A program made the translations under genes and the position numbers. The notes beneath the pieces were generated by a model. The model worked only from the letters and a program-made list of their open reading frames with translations, was not told the origin of the DNA and searched no databases. From IMG/VR virus record IMGVR_UViG_2778261223_000007, positions 12,132 to 76,131 of that record: 64,000 nt of DNA; one strand, written 5' to 3'. Below are positions 23,885 to 38,342 of the stretch, one piece after another. The DNA comes from a virus. Lineage: Duplodnaviria; Heunggongvirae; Uroviricota; Caudoviricetes. Position 1 is the first letter of the stretch. Each line of letters starts with the position of its first letter.

Positions 23885-26800
23885 TTGGACAAACTACTTC
23901 ATTCAATCAGTGAAGCCTCCAGCTTAGGCGAACTGATTGAAATTGTTAGTCGGTTGCATAAATTACGTGCTGTTGCGACCTTTGGCGTCAGGAAAGCCGA
24001 TGGCGTCAGTATTCAGAAAACACGCCGGGCAGCAAATAATGCCGCAGTAAATCTTCTTAATTCCCTTCCGCCCGGCTTCGATGGGGCGAAATTAACTGAC
24101 GAACAACGTCAGATTCTTGCCGGGTATACCGGTGAAGGCGGCCTGACAGATGGTGAGGGCAGCCAATACGAATACTACACGCCACAGTTTATGGCTGAAG
24201 GTATATGGGATCTGTTTGCTGACTACGGTATTGATGGCGGGCACGTACTGGAACCATCAGCGGGCACAGGTATTTTCCAGGAGACAAAACGGCAGGGCAT
24301 GATAATGACCAGCGCGGAACTGTCTCCGATTTCTGGTCGAATAAACCAGCTTTTGCACCCGGAAGACGATGTGAATATCGGGGCGTTTGAGGCGCTGGCG
24401 GCGAAAGATGCAATGTATGACCACGCTGTTGGTAACGTACCGTTTGGTGAAGGGCGTTCCGGCGTTGCCGGGCTTGATCCGGCATATGCAAACGAGAAGA
24501 ACGTTGGCAATTACTTTGTGCTGCGCACGATCGACAAGGTTAAGCCTGGTGGGCTTATCGTATTGGTGGTGCCAAATGGCATGACCGATGGTACGAAATA
24601 TAAAAAATTGCGCGATAAAGTCAGCCGTAAAGCGGAATTTTTGGGCGCACATCGTATGCCTTCCGGTACGTTCAGCGAATCCGGTACAGATACCGTGGTG
24701 GACGTATGGGTATTGCGTAAACACCCGGAAACCTTCCTGGAGATGATCCCCGACACGGATGATTCAACACTCAAATCGGCAAACGTCCTTTGGGATACCT
24801 TCCTCAAAGGAAAATGGTTTACAACCGAAGGGAAGCGATTTGTTTACGGCGACATGGAACGTGCCAGCTTCCGCAATACCCTGGTGGTGAAAAAAGACGG
24901 TCGTGTATCCAATGAGTCGATGAAAACCGCGCTATCTCGTCGCTTTGATAGTCGCATCAATTGGGATTTGCTCGGCGTAACTACTCAGGCATGGCAGGGC
25001 GCGAAAGTGGGCGATAAACGCCTTGTAGGCGGTATCTGGCATGAGTTTGATGGTCTGAAATGGGTTAAGGACACGACAACCAAATCCTCCGCGCTTGATG
25101 TAAGTCGATATGGTGTTTCGACGTTTGGCGATCTGCAGATCGCGTTCCAGTCAACAAACGGGATTCTGGCTTTGTCATGGGACCAGATATCGGCGATCGC
25201 GTCCGACTATCCATCGGTTGTCAGTGATGAAGTGGCAGCAATGATTCGCTTTGCTGGCAAGCAGCGAGAAAAAGATAGAGAGCGCGTTATGCGCGGTGCG
25301 CTGATAGGGCAGTTGATCAACAAGGCACTTGATTTGCGTAACCTGGGGGTGAACGTTGATGACAAACTGGCAGATGCATCCCGCCTGGCGGCAGCAGAAG
25401 TTGCGAAGTATGGACCACCACACGCCATTAAGCTGAATGGGCTTGCTGAAGCTGGCGCTAAAAACTGGATGACGTTCACTGGCAATGTGAAACAGGATGG
25501 TTCCACTTCTGACCTTCTGGCAGGGCGACTTGATGTAACGGATGGTGCTGCCGGTATTGACTTTACACGTCCTGAACAAGTGATAGCACATCTTTTCAGT
25601 GATGTAGCCCTTAATCCTATAACGCTGGGAGACTTTCGTGAGGCGTTTGCTGGTGAACTGCCAGAGGACGACGACGCGGCCCTTGAATACCTGGCGAAAT
25701 TTGATGATATCGCTATTGATGGGTATGGCTGTCTGCTGCCGATGGACCGCGCCACCAGCGGCGATGTTGCAACCAAAACAGCACTGCTGGTGGGCTGGCG
25801 TGATGCGTCAACAGGTGAGCAGAAAGCGAACTTTGAGCGTCAGTTGGCGAAAATCGAAGAGAAACGCATTTTCACGCCACTAAATAAAGTCACCGTTAAT
25901 CTGAATGCCCGCTGGCTGGATCGCCGCTTGATAAAAGAGTTCTTGGCAGAGCAGGGCTATGACGAGTTTAAGTACACTGAACCTGATCTGAAGGTCGTCG
26001 ATGGCATTCTGGTATCTCCGGACGATTACGAAGGTAAGGACGGGGTATTTACCGGCTATCAGCTACGAACCGTAAACGGCAAAAACGGGAATGAGTTCAA
26101 GAAGGCCAACAATAAAGACGGCTTCCTGAACCAGTTAGAAAACTACCTGAACGGTGTTAAACCGCGTGGGCAGAACGCTAACGAGTACCTGGATAAAATT
26201 GCTCAACTGGAAGTTAGCTTTAACGACTGGTTACGCACCCACCCGCAGGCGGATCAGATAGCCCGTGACTATAACGACGCATTCAATGGTTTCATTCCGT
26301 TCACACATTCTGACGCACCGCTTGGCCTGGAAGGGATTAGTGGAAAGCGCATTCCTCTGACTTATCAGAATGAAGAAGTTCGGCGCTTGTCAGAAGATGG
26401 GCGTGGCATCATGGGATTTGGTACCGGGCTGGGTAAAACCACGACCGCGCTTGCGCTTGAGGCGTATAACTTCGAAACAGGTCGCACTAAACGCACGTGT
26501 ATTGTTGTTCCGAAGGCGGTTTATCAGAACTGGTATCACGAGGCACAGAGTTTCTACAGTGCTGATGCCTTCGCCAATATGATGTTTATCGGTTTGGATG
26601 AAGTTCGTGATGACAGCGGAAATATTCTGACCGCGCCGGTGCTTGATGAAAATGGCGAACCACGCCTCGACAGTAACGGGCAGCCTCTTACCAGAAATGT
26701 TGTGAAAGAGTCCTCCAGCGCCGTTATCGTTCAGCGTATGAACATGATCCCGTCGTCAAATTGGCGAACGGTCATCATGACAAAAGAACAATTCGCGTCT

Positions 26801-31644: not shown

Positions 31645-32086
31645 GCGAAAGAGAAGGCGTCGCAGTGAATATTCTGAAACATCCCCACATGCCGCAGCTC
31701 TTAGAGAACTGGAGAAAAACCCAGATCTAATCAAAAGGAACCATGAGCATTACGAGCAGGTTCGCGTCCTGGACTGGATGTATCGCAATATGCGTTATGT
31801 GTATGAGCATACTCACGCCACTCCAAACGGTGGCCTGCGAGGCATAAGGACGGCAATAAAAATGGTGGCAGAGGGCCAAAAGAAGGGATATCCCGATCTT
31901 TCTATAGACCTTGCTTGTGGGGGATACCACGGAATGCGCATTGAGATGAAACATGGGAGAAATCGCCTGACTCCCGAACAACTCGTCTGGATGACTCGCC
32001 TCACAGAAGCCGGTTACTACTGCTTTGAGGCGCGCAGTGCCGCTGAAGCCATAAAAGCTATCACGGAGTATGTTTGTCTTGATTAA
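31592..32086 (+). CDS. VRR-NUC family nuclease (start codon uncertain)
   Basis: HEHYEQVRVLDW..THATPNGG..KGYPDLSI..GMRIEMK..LTPEQLVW matches the PD-(D/E)xK VRR-NUC pattern. The ORF-track TTG start lies inside the predicted promoter, and the first in-frame ATG (31778) would clip helix 1. Confidence 0.65.
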   Translation: MLLLFRIFTINWCVRKIARKRRRRSEYSETSPHAAALRELEKNPDLIKRNHEHYEQVRVLDWMYRNMRYVYEHTHATPNGGLRGIRTAIKMVAEGQKKGYPDLSIDLACGGYHGMRIEMKHGRNRLTPEQLVWMTRLTEAGYYCFEARSAAEAIKAITEYVCLD

Positions 32087-32100
32087 ACGGAGAAATCGTT

Positions 32101-32301
32101 TTGCGTTTACATAACGTGGCAGAACTTATCCCTGCAGGAACTAATGCTATCGCTCGTCGTCGCTCATGGCAGCAGGCTCTATGTATTGAGATCTCGAAAC
32201 GTATCAATGGAAGTTTTGAAGCTCGCAATATTGTTACTGGCGATAAGGTTCACATAACCCCGGAAAGTGCAAGCGCTGATGATTGGGAGTTTGTACATTG
32301 A
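32101..32301 (+). CDS. short DUF2829-like protein
   Basis: 66 aa, TTG start 8 nt after ACGGAG. IARRRSW...SADDWEFV. Confidence 0.45.
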   Translation: MRLHNVAELIPAGTNAIARRRSWQQALCIEISKRINGSFEARNIVTGDKVHITPESASADDWEFVH

Positions 32302-32597
32302 GCAAAAAATATTATGTGAGTCTGGCGTTCGCTGACGATGCGGGGAGGACGCGGAGTATCACGTTGAGCACACCGGTTCAGGCTGTGACAGCGCCGTTAA
32401 TCCGTGAAGCTCTCAGAGAGCTGGAATTGGGTGAAAACTCGGCACTGTTGTCGGTTAGTTGGTTAGGGAAAATGTCAGAGAAACAATACGTGGATGGAGT
32501 TACCCCAATAACAGTAATGAGGCTACTTTCATTGCTGCAATGGGCCATCGTACCTGTATTTATCGCGTATCTTATTTATCAGGCTGCAACACAGTAA
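32298..32597 (+). CDS. C-terminally membrane-anchored small protein
   Basis: TTG 32298 overlaps the upstream stop (the ORF track starts at 32283). C-terminal TM helix LLSLLQWAIVPVFIAYLIY. Confidence 0.4.
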   Translation: MSKKYYVSLAFADDAGRTRSITLSTPVQAVTAPLIREALRELELGENSALLSVSWLGKMSEKQYVDGVTPITVMRLLSLLQWAIVPVFIAYLIYQAATQ

Positions 32598-32604
32598 TTG
32601 CATA

Positions 32605-32630
32605 AAAACCCGCCAATTAGCGGGTTTTTT
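32605..32630 (+). terminator. intrinsic terminator
   Basis: AAAACCCGC-CAATTA-GCGGGTTTT within a T6 run. Confidence 0.85.
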
Positions 32631-32670
32631 GTTTATTGCATCTTCCGATACCGTCATCAAACTAATAAAA

Positions 32671-32688
32671 TATGTTAGAAAACTAATT
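32671..32688 (-). promoter_or_regulatory. operator-like site TATGTTAGAAAACTAATT
   Basis: Exact core, 23 nt upstream of ATG 32711. Confidence 0.6.
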
Positions 32689-32710
32689 TAACAAAGTGAC
32701 GGGAACAGCA

Positions 32711-33919
32711 ATGAGTCAACACACTGATACTTCTAATCTGGAAATTATCTCGACAGCAATTGAAACGCTGCGCACACAAATCGCTCTTATACAGAAACGG
32801 AATCCTGGTGATGACCTGTCAAAGCGACTGCACGAGAGTGTCATTGCCACTACAGATAACCTGGTGGCGGAAATCAACAAGCTGCTTGATGATGGGGCAG
32901 TTGATTACAATAAGCTGGTGGATCAGTTTGAGGAATACCAACAAGCCGTTAATGATGGCTTGATCCGTTTTTCACAAGTCACAGGCGTATCAGCGACAGT
33001 TGAAAGCCTGGGTGATGCAGTTAATCAATTTGCCACGAATATGCGTAATGAGATCGGCAATCTGGAAGCGCGTCTTGAACAGGCAAATACACTGCGTAAA
33101 TCTGCTGAAGCCGATTTGAACCGTTACAAAAAAGACTATCCGCCCACCCTGACAAAGCGGCTGGATGTTGCGGAGAAGGATAACCGCACGCTGAAAAGAG
33201 AGCGCCGGGAACTAAAAGAGCGTTTAACCAAGCTCAATCAGCAATGCATTGATTATCAAGGCGAAGGCGTCACACTGCGTAAAAAGTTGGCTACAGCGCA
33301 GAGCATTATCGAAACATTAAAGCGAGAGTGCTCACAGCTTGGTCACGATCTGAACCGTGCTTGTGGCATGGGACAAAGACCAGAGACATTTCCACTTATG
33401 TATGACGGAAGGGATGCCATTGCCTACATCCATGAGTATCCGCACGGCCTGGTTGCGGAAACTGGGCAGCGTGGCGAAGCACTGCTGACGGCTAATTACC
33501 ATCAACAAATCAGAACCAATCGCCTGTTAACGATGGATGTGATCCCATCGGTATGGGGAACGCCGCTTTACTATCGCCTGCCGGGCTTCGAAAAGGACTG
33601 GAATACCGACATAGACGAATGTCTCGCAGATAAAATTATGGCGTACCTGGAGACGGATTTTCCGCGCTTATATCGCCGGATTATGGACTCAAAGGATGCG
33701 CCAATCGATGAATTAAAAATGCGTCCGGAGACGCTGGAGGCAATCAAGCAGACGGAGTTTGATACTGTATTCAGTGTGGCCTGCATTCCAAGCTGTTTCC
33801 ATGAAAGCATTCCGTTCATGCAAGGAGATCGTCGTCAGGAAATCATTGACGCTTGCCGGGTATGGGCGAACGAATGGGATAAGAAGAATGGGGGTGTAGA
33901 AGATCTTTACGGGAAGTAA
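32711..33919 (+). CDS. coiled-coil protein of unknown function, monocistronic and operator-flanked
   Basis: 402 aa from ATG 32711 (the ORF track uses GTG 32696). N-terminal ~230 aa are heptad-rich; the Cys-containing C-terminal domain has no motif I recognise. Confidence 0.6.
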   Translation: MSQHTDTSNLEIISTAIETLRTQIALIQKRNPGDDLSKRLHESVIATTDNLVAEINKLLDDGAVDYNKLVDQFEEYQQAVNDGLIRFSQVTGVSATVESLGDAVNQFATNMRNEIGNLEARLEQANTLRKSAEADLNRYKKDYPPTLTKRLDVAEKDNRTLKRERRELKERLTKLNQQCIDYQGEGVTLRKKLATAQSIIETLKRECSQLGHDLNRACGMGQRPETFPLMYDGRDAIAYIHEYPHGLVAETGQRGEALLTANYHQQIRTNRLLTMDVIPSVWGTPLYYRLPGFEKDWNTDIDECLADKIMAYLETDFPRLYRRIMDSKDAPIDELKMRPETLEAIKQTEFDTVFSVACIPSCFHESIPFMQGDRRQEIIDACRVWANEWDKKNGGVEDLYGK

Positions 33920-33920
33920 T

Positions 33921-33938
33921 GTGTTAGAAATCTAAAAT
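33921..33938 (-). promoter_or_regulatory. operator-like site GTGTTAGAAATCTAAAAT
   Basis: Exact core immediately after the stop of the 402-aa gene and upstream of the promoter at 33954. Confidence 0.6.
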
Positions 33939-33953
33939 CACAATTCGAATGTG

Positions 33954-33982
33954 TTGATTGTGAAGGTAACTTAACATAGAAT
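33954..33982 (+). promoter_or_regulatory. sigma70-type promoter TTGATT-17 nt-TAGAAT
   Basis: Near-consensus hexamers with ideal spacing; no ORF follows. Confidence 0.55.
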
Positions 33983-33988
33983 TTTCCT

Positions 33989-34693
33989 TGCTGGTGGGCG
34001 GTACCCACGTTTCGCTTGCTGGGCTTGATAGTCACTTATTGGTTATTGTTCGCCCACCAGCATTTAACAAATTAAAGCGTTAGAAAAGTATAGTAACGCA
34101 AGAGCACGCTTTGGCACTGTGCAGGCAAAAGTTCAGCAGGTTTAGTGCGGAAAGTGGTTTCAGAGAGAGCACTTTGCGGAGTAAACGACAATACATGTTG
34201 AGCCACGGAAGGTCTTTTTAAGGTGTTCATTGATGATGGTCCGGCAGAGAGTAACGGTACATGCTGCATCTAATCATCAATGCACATCTTCAACATTAAG
34301 GAGGCATAGGGATTTTTGTGGCGGTTACCTTTTGCCCTGAGTCTCCTTAATGTTGCAGTAATGCACCTATGCGGATGTGGCCTTGCATTGTGTCTTGAAA
34401 GAATGGGGTAAGGCCGGGGATATCCCCAGGGGGAGGCACTCCCGCTGCAACGAACAGCCACAGACGGCAGTCGAGTGATGGGAACGTGAAAAGACTTTAA
34501 ACCTCGTTATGGCTGGCGTGGCAAACGCGACAACCGAGACAGAGCGGTGACGGGCGGAGAGAGTGCCGCATCAAGAAAGAAGCCGACTTGTGATCCCTTT
34601 CAGCGGGCATTTGAAAGTGAATCCAACTCAGGCAGTCGGCTTCTTTCTTGTGTGAGATGTAGCGTATTTGCCCATCTTCGGGTGGGCTTTTTT
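33989..34693 (+). ncRNA. candidate ~0.7-kb structured non-coding transcript
   Basis: Promoter-to-terminator unit without a credible ORF. Perfect stems of 10, 10, 13 and 16 bp (see findings). Confidence 0.35.
34670..34693 (+). terminator. intrinsic terminator
   Basis: GCCCATC-TTCG-GGTGGGC followed by T6. Confidence 0.8.
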
Positions 34694-34867
34694 AGGGTTT
34701 TCGTCATGGTTAGCGACTTTGCGGCGGTTTAGAAACCGACCATTAAAGTAAATGCAAACGATGATCTGATGATGGTAGCGGCCTAAGAAGCCAGACGCCA
34801 CGGGGTATGAGTCGTCCCCCGTCAAAAAATCGACCGCAGAGTGTCCCCGTCTGTGTATTAGGGAACG

Positions 34868-34964
34868 GGGAGGCATAACAGGCAAGGGCGCTGGTGTGAT
34901 TAACCAGATGAATGAGAAGGGTCAGGTCTTTCTGGTCAGCGCCCTTACCTGTTACGTCCCTCCC
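34868..34964 (+). other. long hairpin A of the CAYAACAGG family
   Basis: AACAGGCAAGGGCGCTG (34877-93) pairs with CAGCGCCCTTACCTGTT (34937-53); extended by GGGAGG/CCTCCC. Confidence 0.6.
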
Positions 34965-35153
34965 GCGTAACAGCCATTGCTTAATGGCATCCTGGGGGAA
35001 TTTCTTGTAACGGGTATATCCCGTCATGCTGAAGGCGCTAATCACGCTGGAAGCCAGGGTTGTGCATCCCCTGTTACCGAATTGCAGCCAGGGCGCGGTG
35101 CGCCGAAAAGCATACGGAGGTGGAAGCCCTCGCCGGAGACGTACCCGGCAAGT

Positions 35154-35229
35154 GATGGTGTAGCTCAGCGGTTAGAGCGGTTGACTGTTAATCAACGGGT
35201 CGATGGTTCAAATCCATCCACCATCGCCA
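35154..35229 (+). tRNA. tRNA-Asn (GUU)
   Basis: Manual cloverleaf: acceptor GATGGTG/CACCATC, D stem GCTC/GAGC, anticodon loop CTGTTAA, T arm GATGG-TTCAAAT-CCATC, encoded CCA. Confidence 0.9.
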
Positions 35230-35231
35230 AT

Positions 35232-35307
35232 GCCGGTTTAGCTCAGTTGGTAGAGCGCCTGCCTTGTAAGCAGGATGTCAGCGGTTCGAGTCCGTTAATC
35301 GGCACCA
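35232..35307 (+). tRNA. tRNA-Thr (UGU)
   Basis: Acceptor GCCGGTT/AATCGGC, anticodon loop CTTGTAA, T loop TTCGAGT, encoded CCA. Starts 2 nt after tRNA-Asn. Confidence 0.9.
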
Positions 35308-35308
35308 G

Positions 35309-35395
35309 CACAACAGGTAAGGGTATTTTGCGACGTCGGAGATCGCCGAGCTTGGCAGAGGGTTCGAATCCCTACGAAGTACCCTTACCGTTGTG
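35309..35395 (+). ncRNA. tRNA-like element lacking an anticodon arm, closed by a 16-bp bulged stem (hairpin B)
   Basis: CACAAC-A-GGTAAGGGTA pairs with TACCCTTACC-GTTGTG. Interior has a D-arm-like GCGA-CGTCGGAGA-TCGC and a T-arm AGGG-TTCGAAT-CCCT. No CCA. Confidence 0.45.
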
Positions 35396-35535
35396 ATGAA
35401 GTGCAGCTCTTTGAAGCAACCAGAAGATAAGCATCTGGCTTCACAACATAAACCGCAGGAACGACCAATAAACGGTAGTCCGTACGGAGAACACCCCGTT
35501 GAGGAAGAGGCCTGGCCGGAACCGTAACCGGCACT

Positions 35536-35627
35536 ACAACGTTGAGAACACTGGCGTAACGGGGTCATATCCCAATCTACGAATAAATGTTGCGTTGCAG
35601 CGTGACAACCAGTGTTCTCAACGTTGT
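35536..35627 (+). other. 19-bp perfect hairpin D (ACAACGTTGAGAACACTGG / CCAGTGTTCTCAACGTTGT)
   Basis: Perfect inverted repeat 35536-54 / 35609-27 with a 54-nt loop. Confidence 0.7.
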
Positions 35628-35772
35628 GGTGGATTCGCAGGCTGATGCGATAGCTTTCTTGGATGTTAGGGAAATGCGGCCGCAAATCTTCCCTTTCGCG
35701 AGCGGTGATCGTCCGTAGTCCTAATTGGCTGCACCGTATGCCGGAGATTCAGTACCGGCCACCACAACGGCC

Positions 35773-35859
35773 GGAGAGTAGGGCGCATGGTGCTCAAGCG
35801 GTCTTGAAAACCGTCCCATTGCGCAAGCGATGATGGTTCGATTCCATTACTCTCCGCCA
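35773..35859 (+). tRNA. class II tRNA-Ser (UGA), slightly non-canonical
   Basis: Acceptor GGAGAGT/ACTCTCC, anticodon stem GCGGT/ACCGT with loop CTTGAAA, variable arm ATTGC-GCAA-GCGAT, T loop TTCGATT, encoded CCA. Position 8 is A rather than U. Confidence 0.7.
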
Positions 35860-36126
35860 GCGCAACGTTAAGAGTATTTGGCTAATTAAGCGAATGCCGG
35901 AAGCAGAACCGGATCACCAAATGCGTACAGGCGTCATCGCCGCCCAGCCAGCCAAGTGCTCTTACCATTGCGGTGAATGCGGCTAAGCGCACGCGGAACA
36001 GTTAAAACAATCCTCCTTAGTGGTTAAGTCAAAAATCCCGGCGTTAATTGTTAACTGGTTAACGTCACCTGGAGGCACCAGGCACCGCAACCTAATAAAT
36101 ACGTCATGTTTATTGAGGGATAACCA

Positions 36127-36561
36127 ATGTTCGGTAAATTTTTCGGTAAGAAAGTCGCTTCAGCAAAAGTAGAGCTGAAAAGGGTTGAGAATCGCGATCT
36201 GATGGAGGCCATTATCGGTGGCTGTTTGTTGGTGTCTGCCGCAGATGGTGAAATCGAAAAGGAAGAAACAGCGAAACTTGATCAGCTTGTCCGCTCTAAT
36301 CCTCGCTTAAGTCATTTTGGCAACGAAATTACCGCAACAATCACCCGTTTTACTGAGCAACTGGAAGCTGGTTTCCGTGTTGGTCGCATGAATATCCTTC
36401 GCGAAATTGAAGATATCAAAAATGATCCAAAAGAAGCGGAAGAAGTATTCGTTAACATGCTGACGATTGCAGAAGCGGACGGTGAAATCGAGCCAGCAGA
36501 ACACAAAGTACTGGAAGAAGTAGGCCGTCGTTTGGGCCTTCGTGTGGAAGATTATCTGTAA
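36127..36561 (+). CDS. tciA: TerB-domain protein TciA
   Basis: 144 aa with two SAADGEIEKEE / AEADGEIEPAE TerB-type repeats; embedded in the tRNA cluster as in P1. Confidence 0.75.
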   Translation: MFGKFFGKKVASAKVELKRVENRDLMEAIIGGCLLVSAADGEIEKEETAKLDQLVRSNPRLSHFGNEITATITRFTEQLEAGFRVGRMNILREIEDIKNDPKEAEEVFVNMLTIAEADGEIEPAEHKVLEEVGRRLGLRVEDYL

Positions 36562-36725
36562 TGATTGGCAAGGCGCGTATTGCGTGCGCCATTGGTTTTC
36601 TCGTTTTGTCCGTGCTGGTGGATTTCACCAGCAAAGTGATGTCGGTGTTGGCTGATGGGGCACTGGTTTCAGTAGCTGTGGTATTGCTATTGCCGATTAT
36701 TAAAGCTGCGTTCAGGAACTCATGA
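36561..36725 (+). CDS. tciB: small membrane protein (TciB position)
   Basis: 54-aa ORF below the ORF-track cutoff. ATG overlaps the tciA stop (TAATG). Two hydrophobic helices. Confidence 0.5.
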   Translation: MIGKARIACAIGFLVLSVLVDFTSKVMSVLADGALVSVAVVLLLPIIKAAFRNS

Positions 36726-36835
36726 TGGATTTTTGGACGTATATTGATAAGAACCCTGGATGGTCTTTGCTATTTCTGCTTGTGATCGTATACGGAGTAG
36801 AACAAGTAGCGAAGAATCTCAGGCGTCGAAAATAA
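36722..36835 (+). CDS. tciC: small membrane protein (TciC position)
   Basis: 37-aa ORF MMDFWTYIDKNPGWSLLFLLVIVYGV..; overlaps the tciB stop. Confidence 0.45.
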   Translation: MMDFWTYIDKNPGWSLLFLLVIVYGVEQVAKNLRRRK

Positions 36836-36844
36836 AAACTAATT

Positions 36845-36920
36845 GGCCCCTTAGCTCAGTGGTTAGAGCTGGCGACTCATAATCGCACGGTCACCGGTTC
36901 AAGTCCGGTAGGGGCCACCA
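36845..36920 (+). tRNA. tRNA-Ile2 (CAU, lysidine type)
   Basis: GGCCCCTTAGCTCAGTGGTTAGAGC..CTCATAA.. is nearly identical in its 5' half to E. coli ileX as I remember it. Encoded CCA. Confidence 0.85.
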
Positions 36921-37104
36921 TATTTGGTTGTAACACGGCGTCTGGCACATGCGTCGTTAGCGGTCTGGTGACGTTAAAGGGGTTACCTTTTCCCCTAGCT
37001 CAGGCAACAAACCAGGTAGCCGGAATGTGCAAGCCCCGTTCATATCGTCGGACCGAGGATTCACCATCCTGGCGATTCGGTGTGACAGCCGGAAGAGCAC
37101 GGCG

Positions 37105-37152
37105 CACAACAGGAAAAGGCGTTTAATTAGCGTGAGCGCCGTTTCCGTTGTG
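37105..37152 (+). other. hairpin C of the CACAACAGG family
   Basis: CACAAC-A-GGAAAAGGCG pairs with CGCCGTTTCC-GTTGTG; same bulged A as hairpin B. Confidence 0.55.
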
Positions 37153-37374
37153 GTAATTGCGGCTATGCGCTCGTGACGAAGCCATTTTCATTCACTACGT
37201 TCTGATAAGTGACGTCGCCAGGAGTGGCTAACCTGGCAGGTGGAGGCACCACCGCCACAACTCCTTTCAATTCATCATATAGCCGCTCAGGCTGTACCCC
37301 TTAATTAATACGAAGTTACGACATCACTACCGGCACTTCCGGGGGATAGTCGCGCGTGTAAAAAAGGAGACGTT

Positions 37375-37950
37375 ATGTTAATGGCGAACGATAACGCATA
37401 TGCAGAAGAAGATCTCATTTTGAGTGACTTCATAGGGAAGCGTGAACGCTGGACCCAAAAGCGAGAGGAACTTTACGCCTCATTAGTTCGCAAAGGCGTC
37501 AATATCGAAACCGCACAGAGCGGCGATATGACAGTGGTAAGCGTTGGATTGCACGGTGTAAGCGTGTCAGCAATCAATCATGAGCCATACGTTGCGTTAT
37601 CCGAGTCAATGGTAAGGTTAGTTAAGTTCCTGAAGTACACAGAAGCGAATAATGTAATCATTGGCAAAAAGAATATCCCTTTTTCCTCGGCTTTTTACTG
37701 GATGATGAAAGGGCTTGATGCCCGGCGGACATCATGGCCTAAAGGGAGCTATATATCGATGTTCCGTGGCAGCATTGGCAGCAAAGAAAAGCTCTTCGAA
37801 TTCTTGCCGGAAGAGGCATTCGATATTGTGGAAGGGTGCGATGTGATGGTGATGCCTCGCCTGGTAATGATGAATGGTGATTTACAGGCGCAGACAGACT
37901 GGTTTGCAACTGGTGTGGATATTATCGCGACTGACTGGGAGGCTTTCTGA
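37375..37950 (+). CDS. protein with a C-terminal DUF2829-like domain
   Basis: 191 aa. FSSAFYWMMKGLDARRTSWPKG...DIIATDWEAF. Confidence 0.55.
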   Translation: MLMANDNAYAEEDLILSDFIGKRERWTQKREELYASLVRKGVNIETAQSGDMTVVSVGLHGVSVSAINHEPYVALSESMVRLVKFLKYTEANNVIIGKKNIPFSSAFYWMMKGLDARRTSWPKGSYISMFRGSIGSKEKLFEFLPEEAFDIVEGCDVMVMPRLVMMNGDLQAQTDWFATGVDIIATDWEAF

Positions 37951-38342
37951 TGTACGGGACTACCAAATTAAGCACTCAACAGGCCACCAATATTGAGTGG
38001 TCTATCGCTAACTGTAAGATCGTGTCATGCAATGCCACGCGTACTGATGTGGGCCATAAAAGCACTATAACAGGCTATCTAGTAATGACCACCAGGGGGA
38101 TGAGGGTTAGATTTCGTTGGAAAGCAGAGCAAGTAACGCCATTCAGAGAGCCATCAATGCCGCTGCAGGTTGAGCAGGATTATCTATGTTTACCAGAAAT
38201 AGATGGCGGAATGCTGGTGGAGTCTGATGGTAGTAAGGCTGATTTTGAAGCCAATTTGAAGCTGGCACAGGCCGTAATCAATAGTTATCGCGGACAGTGG
38301 ATCGCAAAAGTGAAACATGTTGTTCGTTTGTCTCGCTGGTAG
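37950..38342 (+). CDS. hypothetical protein
   Basis: 130 aa; ATGA overlap with the upstream gene. Confidence 0.45.
   Translation: MYGTTKLSTQQATNIEWSIANCKIVSCNATRTDVGHKSTITGYLVMTTRGMRVRFRWKAEQVTPFREPSMPLQVEQDYLCLPEIDGGMLVESDGSKADFEANLKLAQAVINSYRGQWIAKVKHVVRLSRW

Follow-up and report, generated by a model that had tools for sequence, protein, structure and literature searches.

The gene-free stretch of about 700 nt described here is a conserved, highly folded RNA leader of a D6-type phage-plasmid. It lies in a window of 64,000 nucleotides, the whole stretch of DNA that was analysed, which is 99% identical to phage D6. Judged by gene order and control elements, it corresponds in the D6 lineage to the leader that C1 controls in the P1 ban/tRNA operon, and its core is, according to covariance modelling, a previously unrecognised distant relative of the STnc100/PasD prophage small RNAs. 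The reading that we favour, to which we would give a probability of about 0.6, is that of a D6-lineage version of a repressor-controlled, ban-type early-operon leader endowed with an STnc100/PasD-like core and yielding a trans-type RNA. The initial annotation could assign the unit to no known class. This still holds for direct matches, as a permissive Rfam scan of the 6 kb from 32000 to 38000 found no family in 33921-34612, and it gives way at a more remote level, where the core would be an STnc100/PasD homologue and the whole unit the counterpart of the P1 ban-operon leader. The relevant features, in window coordinates, are as follows (R1 is a covariance model described below).

33920-33938, + strand: operator O1, putative site of a D6-type C1-like repressor, with core TGTTAGAAA at 33922-30
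33954-33982, + strand: predicted sigma-70-type promoter, TTGATT-17 nt-TAGAAT, hexamers and spacing kept in all lineages
33989-34062, + strand: 5′-terminal hairpin, about 7 nt past the -10 hexamer, with a 12-bp perfect closing stem
34078-34094, + strand: second operator-like site of putative function, GCGTTAGAAAAGT here and GTGTTAGAAAA in most relatives
34111-34293, + strand: variable 5′ domain, comprising a hairpin (34132-34202) and an inverted-repeat hairpin (34217-37 / 34273-93)
34281-34365, + strand: long hairpin with a 13-bp perfect core and a variable loop, AAGGAGG being sequestered against CUCCUU
34316-34411, + strand: weak candidate ORF of 31 codons with a TTG start, MWRLPFALSLLNVAVMHLCGCGLALCLERMG, and an occluded Shine-Dalgarno sequence
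34350-34452, + strand: copy A, the near-invariant STnc100/PasD-like five-way-junction core, proposed from a covariance model, folds and compensatory changes
34453-34571, + strand: dispensable short-hairpin module, missing in the L003-L005 lineage
34572-34650, + strand: 17-bp-stem hairpin, with a perfect stem and compensatory changes
34670-34693, + strand: intrinsic terminator GCCCATC-TTCG-GGTGGGC-T6, the same hairpin that closes the P1 'dicF-like region'
34694-35153, + strand: P1-shared ORF-free stretch between the terminator and tRNA-Asn, in the same leader and outside the unit
35966-36091, + strand: copy B, 36 nt ahead of tciA (R1 29.1 bits, E 4e-5)
37145-37262, + strand: copy C, 113 nt ahead of a 191-codon gene at 37375 (R1 40 bits, E 2e-8)

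The order pmgS, gap, tRNAs, tciA is conserved in every relative fetched, and the unit, unannotated throughout, is present in at least 121 PLSDB plasmids and in 99 of 5426 complete E. coli genomes. In the searches made, it was limited to D6-type plasmids of Escherichia, Salmonella and Shigella; scans of metagenomes and of IMG/VR brought back D6-type variants only, and no deeper homologue of the whole unit. A one-genome-per-species scan with a 20-nt core pattern was uninformative, since its five matches, in unrelated MAGs, are about what chance would give. The unit is non-coding and folds on the + strand. That it is not decayed coding DNA, as the initial annotation had surmised, is borne out by the lack of any Pfam or PHROGs match in the ten longest stop-to-stop segments across six frames, by indels that in 17 of 22 cases among homologues are not multiples of three, and by the absence of 3-base periodicity in the substitutions. 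The frame 34547-34732, first described as the sole short sense ORF, is indeed alone on the + strand in reaching 60 codons, but several of 30-36 codons exist on the same strand; the - strand has ORFs of 63-85 codons. To place the unit directly upstream of the tRNA cluster was somewhat loose, as tRNA-Asn begins at 35154, 460 nt past the terminator. Complementary stretches shared by the unit and the remainder of the window were only of 10-13 nt, at chance level.

Operator O1 sits right behind the pmgS-like stop codon and 16 nt ahead of the -35 hexamer, at a position that corresponds to P1 Oban/Op72. The operator-like sequence GTGTTAGAAATCTAAAAT is found at 33921-38, as had been proposed, and is unchanged in 12 relatives, while its core TGTTAGAAA has ten exact copies in the window against 0.53 expected, a 19-fold enrichment, within a common 17-bp context, rTGTTAGAAAwyTAAwT. 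The near-consensus sigma-70 promoter previously noted at 33954-82 is also there, and it is the sole promoter-like site on either strand between 33500 and 36200. The second operator-like site, about 90 nt inside the transcript and 157 bp from the first, has one mismatch to the core in the window, and its core is kept in 12 of 12 aligned relatives. Switching off of the leader by the phage C1-type repressor is predicted on these motifs. At the other end, the intrinsic terminator is present at 34670-93 exactly as first described.

The P1 ban operon, whose named elements are Oban/Op72ab, P1ban/P2ban, trnA, trnT, tciABC, trnI and ban, has its leader in the same slot in gene order, with an operator abutting a sigma-70 promoter and a long ORF-free leader behind it; the operator is asymmetric, 17-bp and C1-type, as in the unit. 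The order in P1 runs from Oban/Pban through the 'dicF-like' leader to the same terminator and then tRNA-Asn. The terminator hairpin is identical in P1 and in the window, it is followed by 92% identity up to tRNA-Asn and tRNA-Thr, and both genomes have an STnc100-like copy ahead of tciA. What places the window with this operon, namely an operator and sigma-70 promoter followed in order by leader, tRNAs and tciA, is all found there, repressor binding being predicted. The two leaders differ in their operator (ATTGCTCTAATAAATTT in P1 versus the 17-bp consensus given above) and, above all, in their interior: P1 has some 190 nt from promoter to terminator, and no similarity could be detected between these and the 700 nt of the window, which match nothing in P1, the homology beginning at the terminator, at 34667. 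P1 is also without copy A and copy C. The label 'dicF-like' borne by the P1 leader is unsupported by any DicF model match, as Rfam DicF was matched neither in the window, nor in the annotated P1 region, nor in the relatives that carry this module.

The P1-shared segment 34694-35153 has features of its own: an ORF resembling a tmRNA tag occupies 34753-85, and an imperfect hairpin of 27 nt lies at 34867-34963. The tag-like frame (GCA AAC GAT ... GCG GCC TAA, that is ANDDLMMVAA and a stop) aligns to the tag end of Rfam tmRNA_permuted, and ARAGORN recognises its resume consensus. Over 34694-34860, the Rfam tmRNA score is 24 bits against a gathering score of 47, and ARAGORN finds no tRNA-like domain at its default or 90% thresholds, the calls made at 80% being mutually inconsistent and some of them on the reverse strand; a tmRNA identity was rejected because the tRNA-like domain (acceptor stem, T-arm) is lacking. 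Small stable RNAs co-transcribed with phage tRNA genes are known in T4, as species 1 and 2, or RNA C and D. Like the unit, they belong to a phage tRNA operon, are structured, have no known function and show acceptor-stem-like paired ends; they come from a different phage family.

The folding of the unit is far from ordinary. Its 711 nt hold four inverted repeats that are perfect over 10 bp or more, where 300 dinucleotide shuffles give 0.04 on average and one at most, and where the first 33 kb of the window have 0.11 per 711 nt; the MFE z-score on the + strand is -6.7. These are the four long stems listed by the initial annotation, all of which exist, with some correction of their limits: the first is of 12 bp rather than 10 (33989-34000 / 34051-62), the second of 10 bp (34228-37 / 34273-82), the third of 13 bp, with AAGGAG and CTCCTT in its arms (34291-303 / 34343-55), and the fourth, which had been placed out of register by 1-2 nt, is of 17 bp (34572-88 / 34634-50), the earlier register 34574-89 / 34634-49 giving no pairing as written. 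The Chi octamers noticed in the first stem are real, but they are not special to it: the window has 36 of them against 1.9 expected, and as this roughly 19-fold enrichment extends throughout, a special role for the Chi pair was set aside.

Comparison of homologues bears on which molecule folds. The covariation that would be expected of an RNA is found, with 10 compensatory pairs in an alignment of 23 sequences and 201 pairs; the covariation score is 0.075, against 0.060 after shuffling (none of 500 shuffles reaches it) and at most 0.028 with partners slid, modest values for the unit as a whole because most homologues are at least 92% identical. The sequence of pSa1423-90k (L009), apparently riddled with indel errors, was excluded from the structural counts. 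The alignment contains 456 G.U cells versus 25 A.C cells, G.U is the majority state at 19 pairs and A.C at none, and the alignment-fold energy is -353 on the + strand versus -323 on the - strand. These compensatory and wobble-preserving changes in the stems favour an RNA of the + strand.

The unit is modular and mosaic, not one large RNA of the GOLLD/ROOL type, and its conservation is concentrated in one 100-nt core. The 5′-terminal hairpin, with Chi in one arm and the Chi complement in the other, shows a compensatory C-G to G-C change at 33999/34052 together with a U-A to U.G change, while changes in the variable 5′ domain are mainly one-sided and wobble-preserving, with one compensatory pair. 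The long hairpin at 34281-34365 has compensatory changes at 34289/357, 34295/351, 34307/339 and 34310/336, and the 17-bp-stem hairpin has two, A-U to U-A at 34577/645 and G-C to A-U at 34579/643. Entire modules come and go: relatives L003-L005 are without 34452-34575, and L006 and L010-12 carry an extra 'dicF-like' module of about 130 nt, of P1 type, alongside the D6 modules. The loop of the long hairpin is inverted in two relatives (L024 and L056). A site-specific invertase switch was considered and rejected by inference, the segment being just 39 bp long and its repeats, presumably, unlike the P1 Cin/cix sites; template switching at the quasi-palindrome is a simpler cause.

Copy A, the conserved core, has a closing stem (34351-59 / 34444-52) that encloses AAU at the junction, a hairpin whose loop reads CUAUGCG, a further, long one, GGGGAUAUCCCC, and a last arm, the hairpin GGGGG-AGGCA-CUCCC, which is stacked on the closing stem. 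Folded alone, 16 of 16 variants give the same junction; in the full-length fold, the upstream long hairpin captures 4 nt of the closing stem. Among variants the closing pair 34357/34446 passes from A-U to G.U to G-C, and relative L005 has compensatory changes within the long hairpin of the core. The modelled topology is that of a class-II-tRNA-like molecule, with a closing stem on a terminal hairpin and three further arms. It must be kept in mind that the near-invariance of copy A, amid flanks that are 65-82% identical, could in part come from mosaic recombination rather than from selection.

Salmonella and pathogenic E. coli carry the prophage small RNAs STnc100, PasD1 and PasD2. Structural homology links STnc100 with PasD, neither of which has a known function, and PasD is an Hfq-bound RNA identified by RIL-seq and validated by northern blotting (bioRxiv 10.64898/2026.05.13.724894). 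The covariance model R1, built from variants of copy A only, matches copies B and C, the copy ahead of P1 tciA, and canonical STnc100 of lambdoid phages, five loci of which score 28-50 bits (E 6e-6 to 4e-12). Over 15 R1 matches, compensatory changes affect 22 of the 34 pairs. The share of paired cells is 98%, falling to 72% when shuffled and 35-47% when slid, a pairing that is inflated since the alignment from which it comes (A5) was fitted to the model. The Rfam model of STnc100 (RF02076), which gives canonical members 122-161 bits for a gathering threshold of 47, leaves copy A unmatched at E<=1 in the 6 kb scan and at E<=10 in a 141-nt one.

Copy A has the same arms as the Rfam consensus of STnc100, together with its GAAU, UGCG and GGAGGCACC motifs. 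In STnc100/PasD and in copy A alike, an 8-9-bp closing stem is followed at the junction by (G)AAU and by a first arm looped with U.UGCG; then come the middle hairpins and, stacked on the closing stem, a 5-bp terminal arm with GGAGGCACC. STnc100 is phage-borne like the copies of the window, and its canonical members come just after phage tRNA clusters. Copy A differs in lacking what flanks the core in the STnc100 model (its positions 1-30 and 148-206), in its P1/D6-type phage-plasmid carrier where STnc100 belongs to lambdoid prophages, and in its place some 360 nt inside a longer, predicted repressor-controlled transcript. In canonical STnc100 a terminator of its own comes about 40 nt past the core; after copy A the first one is 218 nt downstream. 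The operon of the window holds three copies of the fold. Copy B reaches 39.6 bits with the Rfam STnc100 model, under the gathering score of 47, and copy C is unmatched by it at E<=10; no terminator was found between either copy and the next gene. Since the terminator of copy A is 218 nt off and copies B and C precede genes as elements of a 5′ UTR do, action in cis is no less plausible than action in trans. Lambdoid loci bearing TerB/TciA (L104-L141) are matched neither by R1 nor by Rfam STnc100.

We may now propose how the leader would work. In the plasmid prophage, a D6 C1-type repressor bound to the promoter-side operator, and probably to the second site about 90 nt downstream, would keep the unit silent. 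Upon induction or infection, transcription would start near 33989, and the 12-bp hairpin at the very 5′ end should slow down 5′-end-dependent decay while the rest folds as a chain of independent modules. Transcription might stop at the terminator 34670-93, leaving an RNA of about 700 nt, or read through into the P1-shared segment and the tRNA genes. The functional heart would be the 103-nt five-way junction at 34350-34452, as a diverged paralogue of the STnc100/PasD fold with two further copies in the operon. This core most likely marks a stable processed RNA that would act like those STnc100/PasD relatives, of E. coli and Salmonella only, for which Hfq association and pairing with mRNA are reported, and an RNA of the STnc100/PasD type is the most likely product of the induced transcript.

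Other explanations deserve consideration. Possible, if clearly less probable, is that the leader acts in cis, the five-way junction being a sensor or a domain that binds a protein or ligand, in the manner of a riboswitch or of put, and setting the level of read-through of 34670-93 into the tRNA, tciA and replication genes, with copies B and C acting likewise ahead of their own start codons, 36 and 113 nt away. The unpaired AAU, CUAUGCG and GAGGCAC, conserved over covarying stems, have the look of an aptamer; a terminator inside an operon calls for read-through, and canonical STnc100 has one close behind its core. P1 speaks in the same sense, as its ban gene lies 2.6 kb downstream of the annotated C1-controlled P1ban/P2ban, with no other + strand promoter annotated ahead of the ban coding sequence, and so does the overlap of 4-5 nt between closing stem and upstream hairpin, both pairings of which survive changes at 34351. 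However, no ligand or partner is known, two dispensable modules occupy the 218 nt between copy A and the terminator, no alternative pairing of core and terminator was found, and the PasD relatives are discrete Hfq-bound RNAs.

We consider as unlikely, taken with all its parts, a variant in which the STnc100/PasD fold, rather than acting chiefly in trans as a small RNA, is a tRNA-derived, class-II-tRNA-shaped cis module, repeated in phage tRNA operons. It would serve as processing or stabilising punctuation for RNase P or other tRNA enzymes, or as a sensor gating terminator read-through, and copy A would compete with the AAGGAGG/CUCCUU hairpin in such a way that refolding couples processing to translation of the 31-codon peptide on induction.

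Less probable again is that the unit is a structured messenger from which a small, toxic membrane peptide of type I toxin or kil character would be made, the AAGGAGG/CUCCUU hairpin blocking translation until processing or refolding frees the ORF in lytic growth. The weakly supported 31-codon hydrophobic ORF is intact in about 50 of 54 loci, and across three different and unrelated loop versions it keeps its frame, a start codon (TTG or GTG) 7-15 nt behind an invariant AAGGAGG, and the hydrophobicity of its N-terminus. Five of eight substitutions in it are synonymous, by a hand count on the alignments, and changes in the length of a T-run are located just ahead of the start codon. Yet several of these 'synonymous' changes are equally explained as preserving RNA pairs, and the 50 nt past the stop codon are conserved as well as the ORF. 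L005, L010, L024 and L056 have lost the start codon, L052 has lost the stop, and a frameshift in a G-run turns the ORF into a 63-codon form in the L011 group. Neither Pfam nor NCBIfam nor PHROGs has a match to the peptide, none of four versions of its 31 residues occurs exactly among 15 billion proteins, and no antisense promoter was found on the - strand of 33500-36200.

A single large ornate RNA with a global architecture, for which GOLLD and ROOL had initially been put forward as precedents, is very unlikely. The unit resembles them as a long, hairpin-rich phage sequence of about 700 nt without a conserved ORF and near tRNA genes, and a long-range helix predicted between 34111-19 and 34545-53 has U.G to C-G changes; against this, the Rfam scan gave no large-RNA match, the 3′ strand of that helix is missing in L003-5, modules are absent or inserted while the remainder is retained, conservation is uneven and the host range narrow. 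The least probable reading of all is that of an element acting as DNA, through cruciform or quasi-palindrome hotspots, protection by Chi or repressor looping between operators: perfect palindromic arms are stems in DNA too, Chi occurs in both orientations, two operator-like sites stand 157 bp apart and a hairpin loop was inverted as DNA in two relatives, but Chi is enriched all over the window, changes preserve wobble pairs, the asymmetry of 19 mostly-G.U pairs and no A.C pair is explained solely by a + strand RNA, and the core fold is common to experimentally detected RNAs.

The consequence of the favoured reading, that of a repressor-controlled leader with an STnc100/PasD-like core, goes beyond the locus itself. 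STnc100/PasD are abundant prophage RNAs of Salmonella and of Shiga-toxin and enteropathogenic E. coli, and a diverged version of their fold, missed by the current Rfam model, is now met in P1/D6-type phage-plasmids, with three copies in the operon of the window, scattered among tRNA genes and downstream of a promoter that bears a clear repressor operator. The STnc100 family is thereby widened, and its five-way junction gains a much stronger support from covariation. The link to phage tRNA clusters now appears in lambdoid phages and in P1/D6-type phage-plasmids alike. For the D6-type plasmids, which are carried by about 2% of complete E. coli genomes, this means that some 1.2 kb of conserved non-coding sequence have stood unannotated at this locus; and a D6-type phage-plasmid offers a genetically tractable setting for an RNA of the STnc100 type.

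The window shares 99% identity with Escherichia phage D6. In it, the ORF-free unit of about 0.7 kb (33921-34693) is flanked upstream by a pmgS-like gene (32696-33919) and downstream by a cluster of tRNA-Asn (35154), tRNA-Thr, tRNA-Ser and tRNA-Met, itself followed by tciA/tciB. The equivalent place in P1 is occupied by the C1 operator Oban (Op72ab) with the promoters P1ban and P2ban, then by an ORF-free leader annotated as 'dicF-like region', and further on by trnA, trnT, tciABC, trnI and ban. Identity between P1 and the window (92%) starts exactly at the terminator (34667) and continues into the tRNAs, whereas the interval from promoter to terminator, about 190 nt in P1, is unrelated to the 700 nt of the window. 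This shared position, together with the control elements of P1 and the identity from the terminator onward, allows us to understand the unit as the form that a known leader under repressor control takes in the D6 lineage. The operator, promoter and terminator proposed in the initial annotation are all found in the sequence:

33921-38, + strand: operator-like sequence GTGTTAGAAATCTAAAAT
33954-82, + strand: promoter TTGATT-17-TAGAAT, the sole sigma-70-like site on both strands of 33500-36200
34670-93, + strand: terminator GCCCATC-TTCG-GGTGGGC-T6
20529, 21728, 31630, 32673, 33922, 42797, 44207, 53425, 56813 and 57471: ten TGTTAGAAA cores, putative operators of the D6 repressor

The operator core TGTTAGAAA is thus present in 10 copies in the window for 0.5 expected, and with the asymmetric 17-bp context common to the copies, rTGTTAGAAAwyTAAwT, it looks in its sequence like a P1-type repressor operator. 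One core stands directly ahead of the pmgS-like gene.

The unit is folded as a + strand RNA. Four perfect stems had been recognized in it at the outset; all exist, the fourth lying 1-2 nt out of the register first assigned to it:

33989-34000 / 34051-62: perfect stem 1, 12 bp
34228-37 / 34273-82: perfect stem 2, 10 bp
34291-303 / 34343-55: perfect stem 3, 13 bp
34572-88 / 34634-50: perfect stem 4, 17 bp
34316 (TTG) to 34411 (TAA), + strand: candidate small ORF encoding MWRLPFALSLLNVAVMHLCGCGLALCLERMG, downstream of a sequestered AAGGAGG

The 711 nt of the unit contain four perfect inverted repeats of 10 bp or more; dinucleotide-preserving shuffles (300) average 0.04, and the first 33 kb of the window have 0.11 per 711 nt. 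The z-score of the fold energy is -6.7. The Chi octamers (GCTGGTGG) of the first stem are real; they are part of a genome-wide feature, because Chi is enriched across the window (36 copies, mostly on the + strand, for 1.9 expected). A further close inverted Chi pair is seen at 25752 / 25786. Covariation among homologs, proposed initially as a check, bears the fold out: for 201 predicted pairs examined in 23 sequences, 98.2% of cells are paired and 10 pairs display compensatory changes, for a score of 0.075 versus 0.060 after shuffling (none of 500 shuffles reaches 0.075) and at most 0.028 with partners slid, a test of limited power since identity is 92% or higher for most homologs. The support falls on four pairs of the AAGGAG/CUCCUU hairpin, two to three pairs of the 17-bp hairpin, and the 5' hairpin. 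As for the strand, G.U cells outnumber A.C cells (456 versus 25), 19 pairs are mostly G.U across sequences and none mostly A.C, and the alignment folds better by 30 kcal/mol as the + strand, which matches the direction of promoter and terminator.

The unit is also non-coding, and the early opinion that it is not decayed coding DNA was borne out: translated in six frames, its segments have no counterpart in Pfam or PHROGs, 17 of the 22 indel events among homologs have lengths not divisible by three, and the variable sites are spread over the three phases as 75/72/68. At least 121 PLSDB plasmids (Escherichia, Salmonella, Shigella) hold a homolog, as do 99 of the 5426 complete E. coli genomes, plasmid-borne in every case and annotated in none; D6 is the only phage record holding the unit, and scans of IMG/VR and metagenomes returned the same lineages only. 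The relatives, 63% to 99% identical to the window, form a mosaic when 12 of them are aligned: one lineage (L003-L005) is without 34452-34575, while L006 and L010-12 have the P1 'dicF-like' module inserted after the 17-bp hairpin and ahead of the terminator. This module, carried by some D6-type plasmids and absent from the window, has in P1 (locus L002, 3937-4038) no match to Rfam DicF at E<=1, nor to another Rfam family. The large ornate RNA imagined at first, akin to GOLLD or ROOL, gives way to a modular, mosaic unit, which does not make up a large RNA of a categorically new kind. Conservation differs greatly along it: 34339-34458 is near-invariant (1-4% variable positions), even in relatives with strongly diverged flanks. 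In a metagenomic relative, L044 (ERZ1035044 contig), the core is interrupted after GGCACCCC by unrelated ATAAGCGCTAACTTAAGG..., which suggests an insertion or rearrangement.

This block folds alone as a five-way junction (copy A, 34350-34452), formed by all 16 distinct versions, among them the divergent version of E. fergusonii (L005), where two compensatory changes maintain the long hairpin.

34351-59 / 34444-52, + strand: predicted closing stem
Inside it, in order: AAU spacer; CUAUGCG-loop hairpin; long hairpin; GGGGAUAUCCCC; GGGGG-AGGCA-CUCCC hairpin, immediately next to the 3' strand of the closing stem

The closing pair 34357/34446 is A-U in the window, G.U in most relatives and G-C in L003-5, L017 and L018, and its T-to-C change disrupts an alternative hairpin proposed by RNAalifold. 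A covariance model trained on the 16 copy A sequences alone, R1, finds two more copies on the + strand: copy C (37145-37262; 40 bits, E 2e-8), before a 191-codon gene at 37375, and copy B (35966-36091; 29 bits, E 4e-5), before tciA. The tciA-preceding copy is also found in P1, where it is the only one, and in P1-like contigs. Copy B overlaps a sub-threshold match to Rfam STnc100 (39.6 bits, gathering score 47), the consensus of which shares these arms as well as the GAAU, UGCG and GGAGGCACC motifs. Conversely, canonical STnc100 RNAs of lambdoid viral contigs (122-161 bits in Rfam), also directly after a tRNA cluster, are recognized by R1 with E 6e-6 to 4e-12. Over 15 R1 matches, in an alignment that was fitted to the model, 22 of 34 pairs have compensatory changes, 98% of cells are paired (72% shuffled, 35-47% slid) and the covariation score is 0.569 versus 0.181 shuffled. 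Rfam's own STnc100 model gives no match to copies A or C, even at E<=10. The unit, which could not be placed in a known class at first, is a modular, probably repressor-controlled leader, at the heart of which lies a diverged form of the STnc100/PasD fold that had gone unrecognised.

The RNAs STnc100 and PasD1/PasD2 are encoded by prophages and have been judged homologous in structure; PasD is among the most abundant Hfq-bound RNAs in EPEC (RIL-seq) and validated by northern blot, and the function of the family 'has not been elucidated' (bioRxiv 10.64898/2026.05.13.724894). Stx2 phages encode STnc100 at a distance of 75 nt downstream of stx2, and it has been detected in vesicle preparations (PMC12370729). 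Our literature search found no paper that reports STnc100 or PasD from phage-plasmids of the P1 or D6 type.

We give a probability of about 0.6 to the reading of a repressor-controlled leader RNA with an STnc100/PasD-type core. The main rival, which we hold unlikely, is a role of the junction in cis: copies B and C are 36 and 113 nt ahead of genes, in canonical STnc100 a terminator comes after the core, and 4-5 nt of the closing stem also belong to the upstream hairpin (-72.2 kcal/mol with that hairpin complete, -67.6 with the junction closed), position 34351 co-varying with both possible partners. Less probable still would be that the fold works in cis as a tRNA-shaped element governing processing or read-through in the tRNA operons of phages. 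In the order of its arms and in the stacking of a hairpin on the closing stem the junction has the topology of a class II tRNA; this is a likeness of shape only, and neither tRNA models nor ARAGORN call a tRNA there. A further rival is a structured mRNA for a hydrophobic 31-codon peptide, the frame, start codon and hydrophobicity of which are retained across three unrelated loop sequences, but which is very doubtful, as the start is missing in L005, L010, L024 and L056 and the stop in L052 (by a change improving an RNA pair), a G-run shift yields 63 codons in the L011 group, the peptide matches nothing in the families or database entries searched, and no antisense promoter was found in 33500-36200. 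In L024 and L056 the loop 34304-34342, between the 13-bp arms CAACATTAAGGAG / CTCCTTAATGTTG, is inverted (with a 10-nt deletion in L056), probably by small hairpin-loop inversion through template switching, which removed the TTG.

Beyond the terminator, 34753-34785 (+ strand) reads GCA AAC GAT GAT CTG ATG ATG GTA GCG GCC TAA, ANDDLMMVAA*, strongly resembling a tmRNA tag (E. coli ANDENYALAA*), upstream resume context included, in a stretch of about 170 nt near-invariant across P1 and all D6 lineages. The search for a tRNA-like domain in 34694-34860 gave no credible candidate; there Rfam tmRNA_permuted scores 24 bits (gathering score 47) and ARAGORN makes calls only at the 80% threshold, inconsistently. 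A 27-nt imperfect inverted repeat (34867-34963, + strand) lies in the P1-shared segment, with, by eye, a T-A to C-G compensatory difference between window and P1. Between tRNA-Thr and tRNA-Ser a tRNA-like remnant (35318-35392, + strand; GGTAAGGGTA ... GGTTCGAATCC ... TACCCTTACC) gets no ARAGORN call at default, an overlapping tRNA-Tyr being called at the 80% threshold; relatives have tRNA-Arg or tRNA-Tyr at this cluster, in varying combinations.

Under the leader RNA reading, the D6 C1-type repressor would silence the promoter via its operator O1 (33920-33938), perhaps also via a second operator-like site (34078-94). Upon induction a transcript would start at about 33989, its first nucleotides thus forming the 12-bp hairpin, and would stop at 34693 or continue into the tRNAs, while the junction would persist as a stable RNA acting like STnc100/PasD. 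The tRNA operon of D6 holds three copies of this fold.
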